The translations under genes and the position numbers were made by a program. Positions 1-6,629 of a stretch of DNA of 10,975 nucleotides are shown in pieces; positions within the stretch are counted from its first letter, which is position 1, and every line of letters begins with the position of its first letter. The notes beneath the pieces were generated by a model, which was not told the DNA's origin, did no database searches, and worked only from the letters and a program-made list of their open reading frames with translations. Source of the stretch: a virus (Duplodnaviria; Heunggongvirae; Uroviricota; Caudoviricetes); the IMG/VR virus record IMGVR_UViG_3300026549_000070. The stretch is one strand, 5' to 3'.

Positions 1-21
1 GTTCGAATCTCTCTTTGCCCA
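1..21 (+). tRNA. 3' end of a tRNA truncated by the window edge (T-loop, acceptor 3' strand, A73); isotype unknown
   Basis: GTTCGAATCTCTC-TTTGCCC-A; same T-arm wording as the Leu tRNAs at 1234 and 2504. Confidence 0.75.
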
Positions 22-86
22 TCTTAGTTTTATAGCAGATGACGTTGGTGTACAAGTAATGTTGTTGTCATCTCGTTCAACCATAA

Positions 87-166
87 GCAACATCGCCCTG
101 TGTGGGTAAACGGATAGGCTCTAAAGGTCTGTACGGTTGCAGTTCGATTCTGTGAACGATGATGCT
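87..166 (+). ncRNA. Atypical tRNA-like cloverleaf with ambiguous anticodon loop (UCUAAAG or CUCUAAA)
   Basis: GCAACATCG/CGATGATGC acceptor-like stem; D-like arm CTGT-GTGGGTAA-ACGG; TAGGC/GTCTG arm; T-arm TGCAG-TTCGATT-CTGTG; spacing is non-canonical. Confidence 0.4.
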
Positions 167-195
167 ATAATAGGAGGATCGCGTATGACTTACGG

Positions 196-216
196 ATAGT
201 GTAGGAGATACACTAT
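196..216 (+). promoter_or_regulatory. Perfect 8-bp hairpin presenting the Shine-Dalgarno (GGAGA) of ORF 217 in its loop
   Basis: ATAGTGTA-GGAGA-TACACTAT immediately before ATG 217; stop of mini-ORF MTYG (185-199) lies in the 5' strand. Confidence 0.5.
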
Positions 217-519
217 ATGTTAAACGATTATTGCGAGAGCGCCTTTTATAAGGCAAACTTCAGCTACGGTGAATATACCGCAAGACGCGGCACACAGGAA
301 GCTAGAAGATTCTGGTTCCGTTGGGGGAATCCTTGCGATCGTTACGCTCGCCGTGCGATGAAGGAAGATCGTTCCAAGAAGAAGAAAGATTCTCGAGGAC
401 TTATCAGAAACAGATTAAAATCTGTTAATATTGATACAACGGAAGAGGAAATTGATAACATTCTTACTGAATGCTTCGACAGCGAAATCTGTTGTATCAG
501 ATGGTGGTGTTATTACTAG
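217..519 (+). CDS. Hypothetical protein, 100 aa
   Basis: ORF track; AGGAG 9-13 nt upstream; no recognisable motif. Confidence 0.65.
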   Translation: MLNDYCESAFYKANFSYGEYTARRGTQEARRFWFRWGNPCDRYARRAMKEDRSKKKKDSRGLIRNRLKSVNIDTTEEEIDNILTECFDSEICCIRWWCYY

Positions 520-524
520 AGAAA

Positions 525-840
525 GCAAACTCTTTAAACTCGTGGGATAGTTTAGGTCGCGTGAAAACCTAAGAGTACTTGGGGAAATGAAGTATGAGCC
601 CAAGGTAAGGCTGGTATGAAAAATTACCGAGACATCAGCTTGCTAAATGACGGGCGGCATGGTCGACAAGCATAAAGGCCTTTACAATGGTTACTGTATG
701 ATGAATACAGGTAGAAAGTTTTACCAAAAGCTCTAGTGTAGGTTGTCTTAATGAGGCGTGGGTTGAAAAAGTACTTGGCTGTGGCAACTGAAAGAAAAAC
801 TTCGGATTTCGCTGCGTTGTCTTTTTGTTATGATGCAGCA
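525..840 (+). ncRNA. Large multi-hairpin ncRNA candidate, family unassigned
   Basis: No credible + strand ORF; helices TTAGGT/ACCTAA (552-572), CTTGGG/CCCAAG (578-604), GGTAA/TTACC (604-628), GCTTG/CAAGC (638-671), CTGTAT/ATACAG (694-710), GCTGCGTT/GATGCAGC (811-839). Confidence 0.5.
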
Positions 841-925
841 CGGCCAAATGTAGCTCAGATTGCCCTAAGAGCACTGACCTTGTAAGTCAGAGGACGGAGA
901 AATGGCAAAGCTCCCTGCGGCCGCA
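841..925 (+). tRNA. tRNA-Thr(TGT)-like, non-canonical T-arm and acceptor stem
   Basis: D-stem GCTC/GAGC; perfect anticodon arm CTGAC-CTTGTAA-GTCAG; T-arm GGAG-AAATGGCAAAG-CTCC lacks TTCG; acceptor CGGCC/GGCCG is interrupted. Confidence 0.55.
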
Positions 926-928
926 CAT

Positions 929-1003
929 GTTAGGCATAAGTTGTTCCTATTACGCCGATGAGGCACTACACTGTTAATGTATGTTTGCTACAGCTCGCCA
1001 ATG
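929..1003 (+). ncRNA. Y-RNA-like element 1 enclosing a tRNA-Asn(GTT)-type anticodon arm
   Basis: GGC-ATAA-GTTGT (933-944) pairs with ACAGC-TC-GCC (990-999); inside are GCC-GATGA-GGC and TACA-CTGTTAA-TGTA; no T-arm. Confidence 0.45.
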
Positions 1004-1043
1004 TTTCCAATTTCATTAAAAATTGGTGGTGCAAGGAGTCAAT

Positions 1044-1226
1044 ATGACAATCAAACTCGATAACGAGAGATTGCAAGAACTTGCATTCGTGCTAGGACAT
1101 ATGGCACGGTTCCATTTAAGTGGAAGATCAAAAGGCATTTGCCAAGATCTTTACAACAAGATTTCCAAACTTCAACAAGAAATGTTTGAAAATGGAAAAA
1201 CTGTTGCATACTTAAAGGATAGTTAA
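1044..1226 (+). CDS. Hypothetical protein, 60 aa (start moved from 1023 to ATG 1044)
   Basis: AAGGAG RBS 6 nt before ATG 1044; amphipathic helical sequence. Confidence 0.7.
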   Translation: MTIKLDNERLQELAFVLGHMARFHLSGRSKGICQDLYNKISKLQQEMFENGKTVAYLKDS

Positions 1227-1233
1227 TTTTGTT

Positions 1234-1315
1234 CGGTCAGTGGTGGAACTGGTATTCACTTCCGGCTTAAGACCGGACGCCGTAAGGATTGAGAGTTCGA
1301 ATCTCTCCTGGCCGA
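1234..1315 (+). tRNA. trnL: tRNA-Leu(TAA)
   Basis: CGGTCAG/CTGGCCG acceptor; TCCGG-CTTAAGA-CCGGA; long variable arm; GAGAG-TTCGAAT-CTCTC. Confidence 0.92.
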
Positions 1316-1366
1316 TTAAAACTCTTACAGTTTTTGCAACTGTACTAACTAAATATTGAAAATAAT

Positions 1367-1397
1367 TTTTCAGAAACTTCTGAAAAGTTGTTAATAT
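1367..1397 (+). promoter_or_regulatory. Perfect 9-bp inverted repeat followed by TTGTTAATAT promoter-like motif
   Basis: TTTTCAGAA-AC-TTCTGAAAA (1367-1386); TTGTTAATAT (1388-1397) recurs at 2494, 3257, 4604 and, as TGTTAATAT, at 10872. Confidence 0.5.
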
Positions 1398-1420
1398 AAA
1401 ATTATAGGAGAAAGGACAAT

Positions 1421-1555
1421 ATGAAAGCAATGATGGTTTGTAAATCAGTTAAGTCAGTAAAACTTGCCGGTCACATTAGTCTTCCAGTTTCTTTCGCCGG
1501 CTTTGCACCAGTTGCAGCTATTGCCCCAATTTCAGGACAGTGGCAGATCAAGTGA
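1421..1555 (+). CDS. Putative attenuator leader peptide 1, 44 aa: MKAMMVCKSVKSVKLAGHISLPVSFAGFAPVAAIAPISGQWQIK
   Basis: Manual translation; strong RBS AGGAGAAAGGA; stop TGA 1553-1555 overlaps the antiterminator 5' strand. Confidence 0.8.
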   Translation: MKAMMVCKSVKSVKLAGHISLPVSFAGFAPVAAIAPISGQWQIK

Positions 1556-1603
1556 GCCTAGTAAAATTTGGATTTTACGGGCTCAACTAAAAGTTGAGCC
1601 TTT
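1554..1603 (+). terminator. Overlapping antiterminator/terminator (attenuator 1)
   Basis: GAGCCT-A-GTAAAAT-TTGG-ATTTTAC-GGGCTC (1554-1584) shares GGCTC with terminator GGCTCAACT-AAA-AGTTGAGCC-TTT (1580-1603); U-tract is short. Confidence 0.75.
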
Positions 1604-1613
1604 AATGATTTAT

Positions 1614-1686
1614 AGGTGCGTGGTGTAAAGGTTTAGCATTACGGTTTCCAAGTCCGTCGGTGGGAGTTCGAATCTCTCCGCGCCTG
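1614..1686 (+). tRNA. trnW: tRNA-Trp(CCA)
   Basis: AGGTGCG/CGCGCCT; loop TT-CCA-AG; G73. Confidence 0.92.
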
Positions 1687-1702
1687 AAAACTAAAATTAC
1701 TT

Positions 1703-1776
1703 TGGGCATTAGTAGTAATTGGTTAGCTACCCGCTCTGATAAGGCGGAGGTCTCTGTTCAAATCAGAGATGCCCAA
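1703..1776 (+). tRNA. trnI: tRNA-Ile(GAT)
   Basis: CCGCT-CTGATAA-GGCGG; CTCTG-TTCAAAT-CAGAG; exact ends uncertain by 1 nt. Confidence 0.88.
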
Positions 1777-1784
1777 TAAAATAT

Positions 1785-1856
1785 GTACCTGTAGTATAAC
1801 GGCTAGTACGCGGCCTTGCCAAGGCTGAGGCGAGGGTTCAACTCCCTTCAGGTGCT
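1785..1856 (+). tRNA. trnG: tRNA-Gly(GCC)
   Basis: GTACCTG/CAGGTGC; CGGCC-TTGCCAA-GGCTG; U73. Confidence 0.92.
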
Positions 1857-1866
1857 TTCATTTGTA

Positions 1867-1942
1867 CGGGCAGTCGGCTAGCGGCGATGCCACTTGGTTT
1901 GGGACCAAGCATTCAACGGAGGTTCGAGTCCTCTCTGCCCGA
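1867..1942 (+). tRNA. trnP: tRNA-Pro(TGG)
   Basis: CGGGCAG/CTGCCCG; CTTGG-TTTGGGA-CCAAG. Confidence 0.93.
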
Positions 1943-1948
1943 TATTAC

Positions 1949-2021
1949 TTCTCTGTGGTGTAAGCAGGTAGCACCCAAGATTCTGGTTCTTGTTGTCTGG
2001 GTTCGAGTCCTAGCAGAGAAA
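1949..2021 (+). tRNA. trnQ: tRNA-Gln(CTG)
   Basis: TTCTCTG/CAGAGAA; CAAGA-TTCTGGT-TCTTG. Confidence 0.92.
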
Positions 2022-2145
2022 AAATCTTCTGTGAATTCCTAACGCAACACCGACGCGTTATGCGGGAGCGGGAGAATAAACATAGCAGTTCCTCTAAGAG
2101 GAAAGAAGAATTGGTAACAATCTTCACGGATAAGCAGAAGATTTT
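2021..2145 (+). ncRNA. Unassigned structured RNA between tRNA-Gln and tRNA-Ala
   Basis: Closed by perfect 11-bp AAAATCTTCTG/CAGAAGATTTT; internal GTGAA/TTCAC, TAACGC/GCGTTA, TTCCTC-TAA-GAGGAA. Confidence 0.5.
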
Positions 2146-2148
2146 TAT

Positions 2149-2225
2149 GGGGCTGTGGCACAGTGGTCAACTGCACTGGTTTTGCATACCAGCATTTATC
2201 GTGGGTTCGAATCCCACCAGCTCCA
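2149..2225 (+). tRNA. trnA: tRNA-Ala(TGC)
   Basis: GGGGCTG/CAGCTCC with G3:U70; CTGGT-TTTGCAT-ACCAG. Confidence 0.93.
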
Positions 2226-2306
2226 CTTACTTTATTGATTGTTTACTAACTATTCAATAAGAAAAAACATTTTGGGTAGCAACCTGATAGCTAAGGATTG
2301 ACGAAT

Positions 2307-2435
2307 ATGAATTTTTCAAAGATGTCGAACATAGTTAAACATTCCTCATTTGTTAGTTTCGTATTGGGATGCGGTATGTGTTCGAAGATGGTCCTTCGTT
2401 CTCTCTTTGGAAAACATTTCGTATTAGAGCCTTGA
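2307..2435 (+). CDS. Putative attenuator leader peptide 2, 42 aa: MNFSKMSNIVKHSSFVSFVLGCGMCSKMVLRSLFGKHFVLEP
   Basis: Manual translation; TAAGGA RBS upstream; stop TGA 2433-2435 lies inside the antiterminator 5' strand. Confidence 0.75.
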   Translation: MNFSKMSNIVKHSSFVSFVLGCGMCSKMVLRSLFGKHFVLEP

Positions 2436-2495
2436 AGTTGTAAGCAGGAACAGTTTACAGATTTTTCAAGGCGGCTCTTAGGAGTTGCCTTTTTT
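2426..2495 (+). terminator. Overlapping antiterminator/terminator (attenuator 2)
   Basis: GCCTTGAA (2429-2436)/TTCAAGGC (2465-2472) with inner TGTAAGC/GTTTACA; overlaps terminator AAGGCGGCTC-TTAG-GAGTTGCCTT-TTTT (2468-2495). Confidence 0.8.
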
Positions 2496-2503
2496 GTTAA
2501 TAT

Positions 2504-2585
2504 GGGTTTGTGGTGGAACGGGGATACACGCTAGCTTAAGGTACTAGTTCCGAAAGGATTGAGAGTTCAAATCTCTCCAGGCCCA
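2504..2585 (+). tRNA. trnL: tRNA-Leu(AAG)
   Basis: GGGTTTG/CAGGCCC; CTAGC-TTAAGGT-ACTAG (C31-A39 mismatch, G37); long variable arm. Confidence 0.82.
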
Positions 2586-2590
2586 TTTAT

Positions 2591-2661
2591 CCAAACTTGG
2601 TGTAGCGGTAGCACAGGTGACTGAAGATCATCTAGCTGGGGTTCAAATCCCTGAGTTTGGG
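2591..2661 (+). tRNA. trnF: tRNA-Phe(GAA)
   Basis: CCAAACT/AGTTTGG; GGTGA-CTGAAGA-TCATC. Confidence 0.85.
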
Positions 2662-2668
2662 CTATTAT

Positions 2669-2741
2669 GTTGAAGAAGTTCATACGGTTGAACGCTGCCC
2701 TCATAAGGCAGATGTAGCAGGTCCGAATCCTGCCTTCAGCA
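2669..2741 (+). tRNA. trnM: tRNA with CAT anticodon (elongator Met, or Ile2 if lysidine-modified)
   Basis: GTTGAAG/CTTCAGC; CTGCC-CTCATAA-GGCAG; G1:C72 and no GGG/CCC, so not an initiator. Confidence 0.85.
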
Positions 2742-2743
2742 AT

Positions 2744-2814
2744 GTGTTATTCGTTCAACGGTAGGACCGTGGATTGTGGATTCACTGATGAGGGTTCAAC
2801 TCCCTCATAACACC
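2744..2814 (+). tRNA. trnH: tRNA-His(GTG)
   Basis: GTGTTAT/ATAACAC; GTGGA-TTGTGGA-TTCAC; C73. Confidence 0.9.
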
Positions 2815-2822
2815 TAACATTT

Positions 2823-2906
2823 GGAAGTGAGTGAGGTTGGCGCTCTAAACTGTCTTGAAAACAGTCACCCCTAAAAAGGTCGCAAGTTCGATTCCTGTCG
2901 CTTCCG
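2823..2906 (+). tRNA. trnS: tRNA-Ser(TGA)
   Basis: GGAAGTG/CGCTTCC; ACTGT-CTTGAAA-ACAGT; long variable arm; G73. Confidence 0.88.
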
Positions 2907-2916
2907 TCAACTTTAT

Positions 2917-2989
2917 ACCGCGTTGGTTCATCGGCTGGAACAGCACCCTTACAAGATGTTTTAGGAAGGTTCAACTCCTTCACGCGGTA
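2917..2989 (+). tRNA. trnV: tRNA-Val(TAC)
   Basis: ACCGCGT/ACGCGGT; loop CT-TAC-AA; one anticodon-stem mismatch. Confidence 0.88.
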
Positions 2990-2998
2990 TAACAATAT

Positions 2999-3071
2999 GA
3001 TGAGGTAGCCAAATTGGTGAGGCAGCAGTCTGCAAAATTGTTATAGGTGGGTTCGAATCCCATCCTCATCT
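2999..3071 (+). tRNA. trnC: tRNA-Cys(GCA)
   Basis: GATGAGG/CCTCATC; GCAGT-CTGCAAA-ATTGT; U73. Confidence 0.92.
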
Positions 3072-3074
3072 TAT

Positions 3075-3161
3075 GGGCGTGTTACCATAGCTTGGCCGAA
3101 TGGGGCAGACTCTTAATCTGCTGACGAAAGTCCACCGGAGGTTCAAATCCTCTCACGCTCA
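3075..3161 (+). tRNA. trnK: tRNA-Lys(CTT) with long variable arm
   Basis: GGGCGTG/CACGCTC; GCAGA-CTCTTAA-TCTGC; variable arm GAC-GAAA-GTC. Confidence 0.85.
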
Positions 3162-3168
3162 TTATTTT

Positions 3169-3252
3169 GTGCTCGTGATAGCAGAGTGGGATTGCGCCAA
3201 ACTTTTAATTTGGAGTCGAAAGACAGACCGAGTTCGATTCTCGGCGGGCACA
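3169..3252 (+). tRNA. trnK: tRNA-Lys(TTT) with long variable arm
   Basis: GTGCTCG/CGGGCAC; CCAAA-CTTTTAA-TTTGG; variable arm GTC-GAAA-GAC. Confidence 0.85.
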
Positions 3253-3282
3253 AAACTTGTTAATATAAAAAACATAGGGATT

Positions 3283-3650
3283 TTGGCATTTCTAGGGTTA
3301 TGAGTTCAACAAATGATGTGAATTATGTGTTGTTCCATAACGCTTTGTTTCAAGCTTGCGCCTGATTTGAAAGACAAGGGAAACACGAGAGATTGTTGTA
3401 CCAAGTGTACAATAATTAAGGAAACGTCTAATACACGCTATCCTTCTCAAACAACTGACAGAACCTGATACACTTAGAGGCATTAAAGTTTTGAACTCGT
3501 CAAGCAAAACTGCTGCTCAAAGGATGATGAAGCCCGTGTCCCACATGCAGGTCAAATAATGGTGATACACAGTAGCCACTCAACTTCATCAGTGAAAAGG
3601 ATCCCGCCGAGTAGGACGTTCGATACAGATTCTTAGTACTGTGAAACATA
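3283..3650 (+). ncRNA. ~370-nt structured RNA candidate containing a 21-codon ORF (3300-3365); family unassigned
   Basis: Preceded by TTGTTAATAT (3257); helices 3343-3379, 3396-3412, 3487-3511, 3526-3590; crossing pair CACAGTA/TACTGTG (3568-3574/3637-3643). Confidence 0.5.
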
Positions 3651-3651
3651 T

Positions 3652-3724
3652 GCAGATGTAGCTCAATTGGCAGAGCACGGGTCCTCCAAACCTGAGGTTG
3701 AGGCTTCGAACGCCTTCATCTGCT
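3652..3724 (+). tRNA. trnG: tRNA-Gly(TCC), atypical (C33; C53:G61)
   Basis: GCAGATG/CATCTGC; CGGGT-CCTCCAA-ACCTG; U73. Confidence 0.8.
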
Positions 3725-3726
3725 CT

Positions 3727-3792
3727 AAGGCAAAAGTTAATCTTAGATATTCAAGTCCTGATGTGAACTGATATTTAAGACTAACAATGTCG
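3727..3792 (+). ncRNA. Y-RNA-like element 2 (simple long hairpin)
   Basis: GGC-AAAA-GTTA (3729-3739) pairs with TAAC-AAT-GTC (3782-3791); TCTTAGATAT/ATATTTAAGA inside. Confidence 0.4.
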
Positions 3793-3808
3793 AAAGAAGC
3801 TAATTATT

Positions 3809-4246
3809 ATGAAGAATATATTATTATTTATTTGGCAGTTACCACAAAATATCATAGGATTGCTTATAATGCTAGTTAACTTTAAGAGCGTTACTATGGA
3901 TAAGTCCAAAAAATGTTTTAGAGTAAAACACTTATGTGATTGTGGGATATCTTTAGGTAATTATATAATTATCGACTCAGATGTTAACTGTAAATATCAG
4001 ACCATTTGTCACGAACAAGGCCATCAAAAGCAAAGTCAAATGTTCGGTTGGCTGTATTTAGTCTTGTTTGGACTACCATCTATATGTGGAAATATTATTG
4101 ACAGAGTTTTCCATAAAAATTGGAAGTTATCAAAAAGACTATATTGGTATTATAATTTGCCTTGGGAAAAAAGCGCAAACAAACTTGGCGGCGTGCACGA
4201 AATATATATGGGTCAAGTTGAACACTTAGAAAGATTTAATTACTAA
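3809..4246 (+). CDS. Hypothetical membrane-associated protein with HExxH motif (possible zincin-like peptidase)
   Basis: Hydrophobic N-terminus IWQLPQNIIGLL; HEQGH; hydrophobic segment GWLYLVLFGL. Confidence 0.75.
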   Translation: MKNILLFIWQLPQNIIGLLIMLVNFKSVTMDKSKKCFRVKHLCDCGISLGNYIIIDSDVNCKYQTICHEQGHQKQSQMFGWLYLVLFGLPSICGNIIDRVFHKNWKLSKRLYWYYNLPWEKSANKLGGVHEIYMGQVEHLERFNY

Positions 4247-4273
4247 TGTGTATATAGTAATTATCAATATTAT

Positions 4274-4393
4274 ATAGGCAAAAGTTGTTCCTATTATCGT
4301 AAGTGGGTTCGACTCCCACCATCAGGATTTCCTGATGAGGTGAAACGGTGACACACGAGACTTAAAATCTTGCACCATTTACAACAGGCCTAT
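4274..4393 (+). ncRNA. Circularly permuted tRNA-Leu(TAA) inside a Y-RNA-like closing stem (element 3)
   Basis: T-arm 4303-4319, acceptor 3' strand CATCAGG 4320-4326, A-TTT, acceptor 5' strand CCTGATG 4331-4337, D-arm, CGAGA-CTTAAAA-TCTTG 4356-4372; flanks pair ATAGGC/GCCTAT and GTTGT/ACAAC. Confidence 0.75.
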
Positions 4394-4398
4394 TTTAT

Positions 4399-4478
4399 GC
4401 AAGTGTAGCCAGTCCTGTCTACGAAACAGGTATCTGTAGTTGGAGCTGTAAACGCAGGTTCGATTCCTGTCACTTGCA
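4399..4478 (+). tRNA. tRNA-Arg(ACG)-like lacking a D-arm, with a 23-nt variable region
   Basis: GCAAGTG/CACTTGC; only TAGCCAGT before CCTGT-CTACGAA-ACAGG; T-arm GCAGG-TTCGATT-CCTGT. Confidence 0.75.
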
Positions 4479-4484
4479 CTTCTT

Positions 4485-4569
4485 GGTTAGATGCGCGAGT
4501 GGTTGATGCGGCTTCCCTGCTAAGGAAGAGTACCTTCGGGTATCGCGGGTTCGAATCCCGCTCTAACCG
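4485..4569 (+). tRNA. trnS: tRNA-Ser(GCT)
   Basis: GGTTAGA/TCTAACC; CTTCC-CTGCTAA-GGAAG; variable arm TACC-TTCG-GGTA; G73. Confidence 0.93.
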
Positions 4570-4579
4570 CTTCCGTCAT

Positions 4580-4605
4580 AGGTTGCTTTTTAGCAACCTT
4601 TTTTT
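4580..4605 (+). terminator. Intrinsic terminator ending the tRNA array
   Basis: AGGTTGCT-TTTT-AGCAACCT followed by a T-run. Confidence 0.85.
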
Positions 4606-4619
4606 GTTAATATCCAACT

Positions 4620-5186
4620 ATGGATAAAAACACAATTATTGTAAATCTTTTCGCTGGCCCAGGCGCAGGAAAATCTACAGGCGCCGCTTATGTTTTTGCA
4701 AAACTTAAACTTGCGGGAATTGATTGTGAATATGTTTCTGAGTTTGCAAAAGACAAAGTTTGGGAAAACAACTCTGAAGTTTTCAAAAATCAATTTTACA
4801 TTACAGGTAAACAGTCATTCAAAATAAGTAGATGCTTTGGTAAAGTCGATGTAATCATTACCGACAGTCCAATTGCTCTTGGTGCATTGTACGCAAAAGA
4901 AGATCAGCCGATGTTAAAAGCTGCTTCACTTGAAGAGTTTGAAAGATACCATCGTAACAACTTCAACTTTGTTATCAATCGCGTGAAGCCTTATAATCCT
5001 AACGGAAGAAATCAAACAGAAGACGAGGCTAAAGAAATAGATGGAAAAACATCCAAGTTTCTCGAATCCCACAAAATCCCGTTTGTTGTCGTTAATGGCA
5101 ACGAAAAAGGATATGATGAAATTGTCAGAATTGTAAAAGACGGACTGAAGTTCGACTATGAAAAGAATCATCCACTTTTTGCATAA
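4620..5186 (+). CDS. P-loop NTPase/kinase (NadR/Ttd14-like AAA family)
   Basis: Walker A AGPGAGKS after hydrophobic strand IIVNLF; EFAKD; VIITDSP. Confidence 0.8.
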   Translation: MDKNTIIVNLFAGPGAGKSTGAAYVFAKLKLAGIDCEYVSEFAKDKVWENNSEVFKNQFYITGKQSFKISRCFGKVDVIITDSPIALGALYAKEDQPMLKAASLEEFERYHRNNFNFVINRVKPYNPNGRNQTEDEAKEIDGKTSKFLESHKIPFVVVNGNEKGYDEIVRIVKDGLKFDYEKNHPLFA

Positions 5187-5240
5187 TTTTTGAACTTTCC
5201 GTGCAGGTCTTTTATATTATTTTTGTAACGGAGGTTCAAA

Positions 5241-6629
5241 TTGACAAAGCAGGAAATTATCAAAAAAGTTATTACACCTATCGAAAATGCTGGTTTCAAG
5301 GCCTACTTTGTCGGCGGTTGCGTTCGTGATGAACTGACTGGAAGAACTCCTCACGACTATGATATTTCAACAAATGCAACACCTGATGAGATCAACAAAA
5401 TCTTTGGTGTTACAGAAACAAGAAAAGCAAATTTGTACGGAGTTGCAATGCCAATCATCAATGGTGAACAGATTGAAATTGCAACTTGGCGTTCAGACCT
5501 GACAAGAGGCCGCCATCCGACAATCAAGTTTTCAAACAAAATTGAAGACGATGCTTTCCGCAGAGACTTTACAGTAAACTCTCTGTATGAAGACAAAGAT
5601 GGAAACATTATCGACCCAACAGGTTGTGGCATTGCTGACATCAAATCAAACACATTAAGTTTTGTTGGAAACGCAGTTGACCGCATCACTGAAGACCCTT
5701 TAAGAATCTTCCGATATGTTCGCTTTGTTGCTTCAAAAGGTTTCAAGGCAAATGAAAATGATGTTGCTGCAATCGAGGCACACATCAACAAAATAACACC
5801 TGAGGTTGCTTTTGCTGATGTTTCTGTTGAAAGACAGTGTGCTGAGTTAATCAAAACTTTTGGCAGCAAAGACTTCACAATGGAAGTTTTTGAAATTATG
5901 AGAAGAATGGGTATCTTCGATGCAATTCATTTAACTGAGATTTTTGAAGATATGAAAACTTGTGAGCAGAATCCAAAATGGCACAGTGAAGGAAATGTTT
6001 TCAACCACACAATGCTGGTTGTGAAAGCAGCAGTTGCTCGTGCTCCTAAAATTGAAAATGAAATTGATCGTTTCGTTTTCATTATGGGTGCAATTCTGCA
6101 CGACTGTGGAAAACCTGCTTCAGGCCGCAAAAACGGCTTAAGCAAGAATGGTTTCCCTGCAGTTAAAGATCACGCAGAAGTTGGTGCTCCTATTGCTTTC
6201 AAGTTCCTGAGAGACTTAAGGTTAGATTGTGCAACTGCTCATCGTATTGAAGGCTTAGTTGCAAATCATATGAAGATGCATCAGTTAGGTCTGCTGGACA
6301 AAAAGTTTGCAATTATGAGCATTCTGAATCTGCCTGACTTCAACTTACTGTGCGAACTGTGCAGAAGCGACAGTGACGGTTGTATCAAAACTGCAGCTGA
6401 CGATGAAGAGATGCCTTTAGACGAAGCTCTGGCTTCTCCAAAAATTGCAAGCTTAATTGGTCAGCCAATTCCTGCACCTATTGTAACTGGTGATGATCTG
6501 ATTGCTTTAGGTTTCAAGCCAAGCGAAAAGTTCCGCAAGGCTCTAGAAGTTGCCCATAAAGATCAGGTAAACAACGGAAAAACTGATAAGGCAATTCTGA
6601 TTGCAAACATTAAAAATATGTTAAAGTAG
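5241..6629 (+). CDS. cca: tRNA nucleotidyltransferase (class II CCA-adding enzyme) with HD domain
   Basis: YFVGGCVRDEL..DYD; RRDFTVN; EDPLRIFR; HD region WHSEGNVFNHT..LHDCGK; TTG start with GGAGG RBS. Confidence 0.92.
   Translation: MTKQEIIKKVITPIENAGFKAYFVGGCVRDELTGRTPHDYDISTNATPDEINKIFGVTETRKANLYGVAMPIINGEQIEIATWRSDLTRGRHPTIKFSNKIEDDAFRRDFTVNSLYEDKDGNIIDPTGCGIADIKSNTLSFVGNAVDRITEDPLRIFRYVRFVASKGFKANENDVAAIEAHINKITPEVAFADVSVERQCAELIKTFGSKDFTMEVFEIMRRMGIFDAIHLTEIFEDMKTCEQNPKWHSEGNVFNHTMLVVKAAVARAPKIENEIDRFVFIMGAILHDCGKPASGRKNGLSKNGFPAVKDHAEVGAPIAFKFLRDLRLDCATAHRIEGLVANHMKMHQLGLLDKKFAIMSILNLPDFNLLCELCRSDSDGCIKTAADDEEMPLDEALASPKIASLIGQPIPAPIVTGDDLIALGFKPSEKFRKALEVAHKDQVNNGKTDKAILIANIKNMLK

Follow-up and report, generated by a model that had tools for sequence, protein, structure and literature searches.

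Leader C and its locus

We analyzed a 10,975-nucleotide (nt) stretch of DNA (IMG/VR record IMGVR_UViG_3300026549_000070; referred to below as the window) that is part of a tRNA island of an uncultivated giant phage, which the run records trace to cattle gut or rumen samples. The window contains at least 19 tRNA genes, all on the + strand, and 3′ of them lie genes for an AAA_28 NTPase and a CCA-adding enzyme, followed by NUDIX, GNAT, and SLT genes. The subject of this study is a short open reading frame (ORF), leader C, and the RNA structures at its end. Leader C lies between tRNA-Ala(TGC) (2149 to 2226, + strand), the last tRNA gene of the preceding block, and tRNA block C (2504 to 3252, + strand), with blocks defined as the tRNA genes from the terminator of one leader to the next leader. 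Block C encodes Leu(AAG), Phe(GAA), a CAT tRNA (Met or Ile2), His(GTG), Ser(TGA), Val(TAC), Cys(GCA), Lys(CTT), and Lys(TTT); its ninth tRNA was detected only by Rfam and by relaxed ARAGORN.

No close relative of the window is present among GenBank phages at the DNA level: a near search was empty for the region, and a distant search returned only a 32-nt chance match. Metagenomes yielded three related lineages. L023, a 160-kb contig, is 100% identical to the window over positions 1 to 6425 (6,425 nt) and hence represents the window's own genome; it adds 13.7 kb of upstream context. L001 is a 259-kb IMG/VR contig with DNA ~90% identical to the window. L003, L004, and L019 all derive from one 295-kb contig, where the CCA enzyme is 74% identical to that of the window. 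More distant relatives found through the CCA enzyme (L015 to L018) had no synteny and no tRNA island beside the gene.

Leader C (2307 to 2435, + strand) runs for 42 codons from ATG to TGA, and a Shine-Dalgarno (SD) sequence, AAGGA (2293 to 2297, + strand), lies 9 nt 5′ of the ATG. The original prediction, made from the letters of the window alone, had listed this independent 42-codon ORF as its second leader, and we found it as described. The counterpart in L003 (7342 to 7485) has 47 codons, an SD sequence (AAGGAG) at the equivalent position, and a tRNA-Leu(AAG) gene directly behind it. The two ORFs have in common an N terminus and a C-terminal motif, with in-frame insertions and deletions between them. 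Synonymous divergence (dS) is 1.29, nonsynonymous divergence (dN) is 0.44, and dN/dS is ~0.34; dS in neighboring genes is 1.1 to 1.4, such that the synonymous sites of the leader are as saturated as those of its neighbors. A profile search of 1.84 billion protein representatives added one homologue, P0148, which resembles the L003 version. A word-based protein search gave zero matches to the peptide, back-translated and gapped DNA patterns matched the known L001 contig alone in IMG/VR, and the 42-residue product has no Pfam family at E ≤ 1. The ORF was not called by gene callers in the window's lineage, and no other frame or strand across the region is conserved. We conclude from this pattern of substitution that leader C is a conserved coding frame. 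A type I toxin-like membrane peptide was also considered and was dropped, as the hydrophobic stretch of leader C is not kept in L003 or P0148.

Competing structures and amino acid composition of the leaders

The end of leader C takes part in two mutually exclusive RNA structures, all on the + strand. Segment 1 (GCCTTGAAG; 2429 to 2437), the 5′ strand of an antiterminator, pairs with segment 2 (TTTCAAGGC; 2464 to 2472), the 3′ strand, and an inner hairpin (2438 to 2463), whose shape but not sequence is kept in L003, extends the structure. Segment 2 shares positions 2468 to 2472 with the 5′ arm of an intrinsic terminator (2468 to 2495) composed of a 10-bp stem (2468 to 2477 with 2482 to 2491), a 4-nt loop, and a U-tract that reaches 2495. 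Predicted folding energies are −17.2 kcal/mol for the antiterminator hairpin (2429 to 2472, inner helix included) and −14.6 kcal/mol for the terminator. It had been proposed that the stop codon of the leader lies inside a segment whose pairing partner overlaps a strong terminator. Indeed, the UGA (2433 to 2435) is contained in segment 1. The proposed terminator upstream of tRNA-Leu(AAG) is likewise present, but its stem ends 12 nt from the tRNA gene and not 9 nt, as originally given. The leader stop is 32 nt from the terminator stem, which should be far enough for the terminator to escape obstruction by a terminating ribosome (compare PMC4824070).

When the terminator was folded together with its native 60 nt of upstream sequence, it was missing from the minimum-energy fold, and its mean pair probability was 0.16 (0.03 in L003). 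Shuffling of these 60 nt eliminated the terminator in 0 of 300 trials for the window and in 2 of 300 for L003. Three ordinary terminators of the window (at 4580, 6633, and 10805) held a probability of 0.98 with their native upstream sequence. Masking the stop codon and the next 11 nt, which mimics a terminating ribosome, made the terminator reappear in the fold in every lineage. By these folding predictions, the terminator/antiterminator switch is beyond chance.

The L003 version has different letters and the same design, with energies of −17.1 kcal/mol (antiterminator) and −14.7 kcal/mol (terminator). Between L003 and the window, 2 of the 9 antiterminator pairs are changed on both sides, with 100% of positions paired, and 2 of the 10 terminator pairs are changed on both sides with pairing kept. 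The L003 stop codon sits directly after segment 1 rather than inside it. The 276-nt spacer as a whole folds far better than its shuffles (z = −4.2). A comparison of positions 2227 to 2502 with all 4,227 Rfam families (E ≤ 5) gave no match, including to T-box and to the Trp, His, Leu, and Thr leader families. Pairing of the 5′ untranslated region with the 3′ arm of the terminator, seen in the full-length fold, was rejected since it is absent from L003.

Positions 2227 to 2510 differ from L001 6658 to 6942 at only 4 of 284 nt; elsewhere, the two genomes are ~10% apart, and the flanking tRNA-Ala genes are very different. This near-identity of the leader C unit points to either strong constraint at the nucleotide level or recent exchange of a cassette.

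RNA data came from four metatranscriptome runs in the form of contigs, which give no 3′ ends, strand, or local depth and in which uncovered parts are uninformative. Contigs from all four runs, which belong to different studies, bridge positions 2468 to 2495, a weak hint that read-through RNA exists; two runs contain the stretch in full. A spike in depth at 2199 to 2355 (runs X18 and X19) was discarded, as it reflects T-arm matches to tRNAs of other organisms.

We then considered the amino acids that leader C encodes. Our recount agreed with the claims that 33 of its 42 residues are L, F, M, H, S, V, C, or K and that A, Q, and W are absent; D, T, and Y are absent as well. Without the start Met, 32 of 41 residues belong to the eight-amino-acid set of block C, compared to 39.6% in phage proteins (binomial P = 6e-7). 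This level was reached by 0 of 3,373 windows of 41 residues from real phage proteins and, among 397 small ORFs in all frames, by one unrelated ORF alone. That six of the seven Ser codons are TCN is also true as a count, but it is no more than phage codon usage predicts (synonymous resampling, P = 0.30).

A similar unit, leader B (1421 to 1612, + strand; called leader 1 in the original prediction), lies in front of tRNA-Trp and consists of a 44-codon ORF (1421 to 1555) and a terminator (1579 to 1601), preceded by a promoter box (1390 to 1397). D, E, N, T, and Y are missing from leader B in both lineages (P ~2e-8 and 5e-7), and the amino acids that it does use are only those whose tRNAs lie downstream, in blocks B and C.

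It had further been predicted that a leader rich in D, E, N, R, T, and Y would lie upstream of the window. Such an ORF, leader A, is present at L023 10001 to 10126, with homologues at L001 1377 to 1499 and L019 9533 to 9652. It has a TGTTAATAT box and an SD sequence in front, its end segment is complementary to the 5′ arm of a terminator, and it precedes tRNA genes for Glu, Asn, Thr, Tyr, Asp, Met, and Leu(CAA/TAA). The residues D, E, N, R, T, and Y account for 25 of 41 positions in the version from the window's own genome and for 24 of 40 in that of L001. The leader A family comprises 27 protein clusters with a well-conserved peptide sequence. No further copies of leader C were found on the leader A-bearing contigs L021, L022, and L024 to L029, nearly all of which end within 2 kb past leader A.

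Across the three leaders, 80 of 124 residues match the leader's own block, compared to 43.3 ± 7.8 under permutation of amino acid labels. This match was reached in 0 of 200,000 permutations (P < 5e-6; P = 1e-5 for L003/L019), and of the six possible ways to assign leaders to blocks, the true one scores best. We consider the successful prediction of the third leader to be the strongest test of the composition match. Tiered attenuation, as originally suggested, fits these data in that the amino acids of leader B are only those of the two blocks named in that proposal; the match at the codon level is no better than codon usage.

We also asked whether leader composition follows the gain and loss of tRNA genes between lineages. 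The result was mixed, and we treat it as anecdotal: where Ser(TGA) has moved to block B, Ser is down in leader C and up in leader B, and where Gly(TCC) joins the leader C unit, Gly is up, but Tyr, Arg, and Ala do not follow.

A probable promoter box beside block C and neighboring elements

A copy of the box TGTTAATAT, which is of the extended −10 type, lies at 2495 to 2503 (+ strand), and tRNA-Leu(AAG) begins directly 3′ of it, at 2504. The next copy (3258 to 3266, + strand) ends the unit. The sequence GTTAATAT occurs 7 times in the window, in every case on the + strand, compared to 0.47 expected; together with the T in front, this gives TGnTAATAT, an extended −10 element. In all six relatives examined, the box lies 6 nt before the ATG of the AAA_28 gene, with variable sequence upstream of it. 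It is also found after other terminators, before other genes and one tRNA. Because of its fixed place before the AAA_28 ATG in six relatives and its occurrence after other terminators, TGTTAATAT is very likely a promoter. Its position before the AAA_28 gene implies that transcription would start at or near the ATG, giving a leaderless mRNA.

The AAA_28 site was seen at 4580 to 4622 in the window and at the equivalent place in L001, L003, L005, L006, and L008, usually right after a terminator hairpin. A hairpin and U-run followed by TGTTAATAT are found in the window both at 2468 to 2503 and at 4580 to 4613. One metatranscriptome run has a gap between a 3.7-kb contig ending at 4611 and the next contig, which starts at 4633; this break falls at the terminator-box junction (4580 to 4620), and we regard it as a weak hint.

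A constitutive promoter between 2495 and the tRNA genes had been named in advance as a finding that would refute attenuation. A box copy is present there, but it abuts tRNA-Leu and is degenerate in L003, where TTTTTATTATAT occupies the corresponding 12 nt. In the L003/L019 lineage, the tRNA genes begin 11 to 13 nt past the three leader terminators, none of which is followed by a promoter-like box. Judging from the spacing at the fused ATG, RNA from the box at 2495 to 2503 would start at ~2510, in the acceptor stem of tRNA-Leu(AAG). Therefore, tRNA-Leu(AAG) would be made only by read-through. The box may also feed the rest of block C. We conclude that it weakens the claim of exclusive control over block C and does not abolish the attenuator, which in the window's genome may modulate block C rather than act as its sole gate.

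In L001, the place of the tRNA-Leu gene behind the terminator and box is taken by a 205-codon ORF that has C2H2-like zinc-finger motifs (L001 6936 to 7662; window 2504 to 2586). The first 7 nt of the window-type tRNA-Leu(AAG) remain in front of it, and a different, short-armed tRNA with anticodon AAG comes after it. The ORF is probably a homing-endonuclease-type insert; several other endonuclease-like ORFs (HNH and DUF559) interrupt the tRNA blocks of relatives. A second promoter type, sigma70-like (TTGAAC, 17 nt, TATATT), occurs at approximately 1585 to 1615 in L001, at 4466 to 4500 in L003, and at 5190 to 5218 in the window. Its locations are after the leader A terminator (own and L001 lineages), before the leader B box (L003), and before the CCA-enzyme gene (window).

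Upstream of leader C, no promoter box is present within 2227 to 2306, the interval between tRNA-Ala and the ORF. Hence, leader C appears to be cotranscribed behind tRNA-Ala(TGC). Transcription that enters leader C probably begins either at the box at 1390, passing through leader B and block B, or near a conserved structured RNA element at 2020 to 2146 (+ strand). This element has an invariant core of ~40 nt within a long, variable closing stem, followed by a U-run, and has no Rfam match. It also occurs at L003 7215 to 7325 and, on the − strand, at L009 1790 to 1925 and L011 1345 to 1490. The core starts with ACCGACGCGTTATGCGGGAGCGGGAGA, and a variable hairpin follows. The closing stem (~11 to 20 bp) is wholly different in sequence in the four contexts, the U-run always follows, and z ranges from −3.4 to −4.6; these judgments are from single folds, as the variable stem cannot be aligned with RNAalifold. 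In the window the element lies before tRNA-Ala and in L003 directly 5′ of leader C; in L009 and L011, unrelated protein genes follow it. The element may act as a riboswitch-like or protein-binding attenuator, or it may be a small RNA. A conserved 26-nt core was not found in the species genomes.

Two odd tRNAs were missed by ARAGORN and detected by Rfam. The first, at 4399 to 4478 (L023 18100 to 18179), combines an ACG anticodon loop with a long extra region and lacks a normal D-arm; L001 has tRNA-Arg(ACG) at that place. The second, at L023 12440 to 12512, is a tRNA-Asp(GTC) with an aberrant T-arm and is the same in L019 (9908 to 9980). Between the box at 3259 and tRNA-Gly(TCC), positions 3284 to 3643 are covered in one metatranscriptome run by separate contigs of high depth (102 to 130, versus ≤21 in the flanks). 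A sequencing adapter is found directly 5′ of 3284, and the stretch contains a 47-codon ORF (3325 to 3468) that is kept in L001. These observations suggest an abundant RNA of ~360 nt.

Proposed mechanism and comparison with known systems

The probable explanation of the locus, which we propose here, is that leader C acts as a ribosome-mediated transcription attenuator and responds to the supply of tRNAs. RNA polymerase arriving from upstream would transcribe the SD-bearing 42-codon ORF. A fast ribosome would reach the UGA and cover segment 1, leaving segment 2 free; the terminator would then form, and transcription would stop before the nine tRNA genes. If the ribosome were delayed within approximately the first 36 codons, segment 1 would pair with segment 2, and the antiterminator would take half of the terminator 5′ arm, such that polymerase reads through. 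Slow decoding would thus yield more of the block C tRNAs. We infer this direction of response, and the choice of structure and the termination by which it would arise, from the model; since ~80% of the leader codons specify amino acids of the downstream tRNAs, the device would raise tRNA output when decoding is slow, a situation that scarce or uncharged tRNAs, or tRNA cleavage by host defenses, could bring about. The sign of the response would suit a supply-on-demand loop because it is the delayed ribosome that would give read-through. The sister units, leader B in the window and leader A upstream of it, would work likewise, each in the amino acids of the tRNAs behind it.

A broader proposal is that the island consists of nested demand-driven tRNA operons, with each leader a decoding-speed probe for the tRNAs behind its terminator: leader A stands before all blocks, leader B is confined to amino acids of blocks B and C, and leader C draws on block C and what lies beyond it. 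We offer this arrangement tentatively, as a serious possibility that falls a little short of our expectation for leader C itself. If it is true, each tRNA set would be induced only when its codons slow, e.g., when host nucleases cleave tRNAs or the phage degrades the host pool.

Several observations weigh against these proposals. The covariation is based on three DNA versions, two of them near-identical, and 57 of 500 trials of its shuffle control attained the observed value; control terminators provide a stronger argument for the switch than this formal shuffle. Synonymous codon choice gives no signal beyond phage usage: under strict wobble, 24 of the 41 leader C codons are cognate to block C, compared to 22.5 expected (P = 0.30), and the corresponding enrichments are P = 0.09 for leader A and P = 0.21 for leader B. 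The leader B antiterminator is weak in the window's genome, where the pair probability of its terminator stays at 0.87. In the same lineage, a sigma70-like promoter and a 102-codon ORF lie between leader A and the first tRNA gene. Two natural variants of leader A, P0129 (on 47 contigs) and P0135, have CAG in place of the TAG stop and continue for 12 more codons to a TGA in the terminator loop. Because these variants run on into the loop, exact stop placement is not indispensable everywhere; in the phages that carry them, the attenuator logic would be altered or lost. If the box at 2495 to 2503 is active, most of block C would be made regardless of the leader. With three segments only, an absence of translation would mean read-through, unlike in trp. 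Lastly, RNA polymerase outruns ribosomes in Bacillus subtilis, and the coupling needed here would be hard in such hosts.

The main rival, which we think unlikely, holds that leader C is an ordinary small phage gene with its own terminator, that block C is transcribed from the TGTTAATAT box of a terminator-promoter cassette, and that the composition is coincidental. The box at 2495 to 2503 is an exact 9-mer copy of a motif restricted to the coding strand (7 copies versus 0.47 expected); elsewhere, this motif comes after terminators, and six relatives keep it before the AAA_28 gene. The ORF evolves as coding sequence (dN/dS, ~0.34), the leader A peptide is well conserved across its 27 clusters, and the L001 terminator and box precede a 205-codon gene, not a tRNA. 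However, ordinary terminators hold a pair probability of 0.98, whereas the leader C terminator falls to 0.16 (0.03 in L003), which shuffled sequences almost never do; three leaders fit three blocks (P < 5e-6), and the third was found where predicted. The box is degenerate in L003, its predicted start at ~2510 lies inside tRNA-Leu(AAG) and would leave that tRNA to read-through, and the leaders match no Pfam family.

The same composition data bear on a second rival, also improbable in our view, in which the terminator does depend on translation and has no tRNA specificity: it would be a gauge of translation capacity or of ribosome-polymerase coupling, or be set by a protein or RNA that binds the leader, and the composition would reflect only the need to be readable with the phage's own tRNAs. 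This would agree with a sensor zone of 36 codons that, unlike those of classical attenuators, has no run of a single codon, with the lack of signal at synonymous positions, with a three-segment layout that reads through when translation is absent, and with the conserved structured element just upstream. It leaves unexplained why each leader avoids amino acids of the upstream blocks (D, E, N, T, and Y in leader B; A, Q, W, D, T, and Y in leader C) and why the leaders differ so sharply in composition in line with their blocks. Very doubtful, finally, is a noncoding structured RNA (a small RNA or an inter-tRNA processing signal) in which the ORF is incidental and untranslated. The z of −4.2 for the 276-nt spacer, its near-identity in L001 (4 differences) between flanks that are ~10% different, and the failure of gene callers to report the ORF in the window's lineage are in its favor, but the ORF, SD sequence, and ATG are kept in L003 despite saturated synonymous change and in-frame differences in length, the region shows no conservation in any other frame or strand, and Rfam has no matching family.

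Phage tRNA genes are usually seen as constitutive add-ons that adjust codon usage or replace tRNAs destroyed by defenses. PARIS is one host defense that destroys tRNAs (PMC12409363). A full-text literature search found no description of leader-peptide attenuation of tRNA genes, in phages or elsewhere. If our proposal for leader C is true, it would be the first case of classical attenuation of tRNA genes, sensing many amino acids at once, and it would constitute a feedback loop on the translation machinery itself, with the leader measuring the codons served by the tRNAs behind it. It would also explain the division of tRNA islands into blocks, the presence of small hypothetical ORFs in them, and the means by which a phage could respond on demand to immunity that targets tRNAs.

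Among known phage elements, the PeSLs of T4-type phages are stem-loop terminators fused to promoters that recur between genes as plain punctuation (PMC2839356). The hairpin and U-run followed by TGTTAATAT are alike in layout, but the hairpin at 2468 to 2491 would be conditional, as a conserved, ORF-tied antiterminator competes with it. The enterobacterial ilvGMEDA leader, trpL, hisL, leuL, thrL, and pheL resemble leader C in having a short translated leader, an intrinsic terminator, and an exclusive antiterminator. In these attenuators, the position of the ribosome near the end of the leader selects the structure, slow decoding results in read-through, and the ilv leader reports on several amino acids. 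We propose that leader C, like the ilv leader, reports on several amino acids at once. In contrast to the enterobacterial systems, leader C is phage borne and has tRNA genes rather than biosynthetic enzymes behind its terminator. It has three RNA segments and not four, such that no translation would mean read-through, and it is long (42 codons), lacks a tandem run of a single codon, and covers eight amino acids. Its sequence is unrelated to the Rfam leader families. T-box riboswitches likewise link the state of the tRNA pool to the choice between terminator and antiterminator in a 5′ leader, but they bind uncharged tRNA directly, have no ORF, and carry conserved specifier and T-box sequences, whereas leader C would sense through a translated ORF. 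The closest example in terms of target is pheST of E. coli, with its pheM leader, where attenuation also acts on a component of the translation machinery and not on a biosynthetic pathway. There, an aminoacyl-tRNA synthetase is controlled and one amino acid is sensed; the products controlled by leader C would be the tRNAs themselves.

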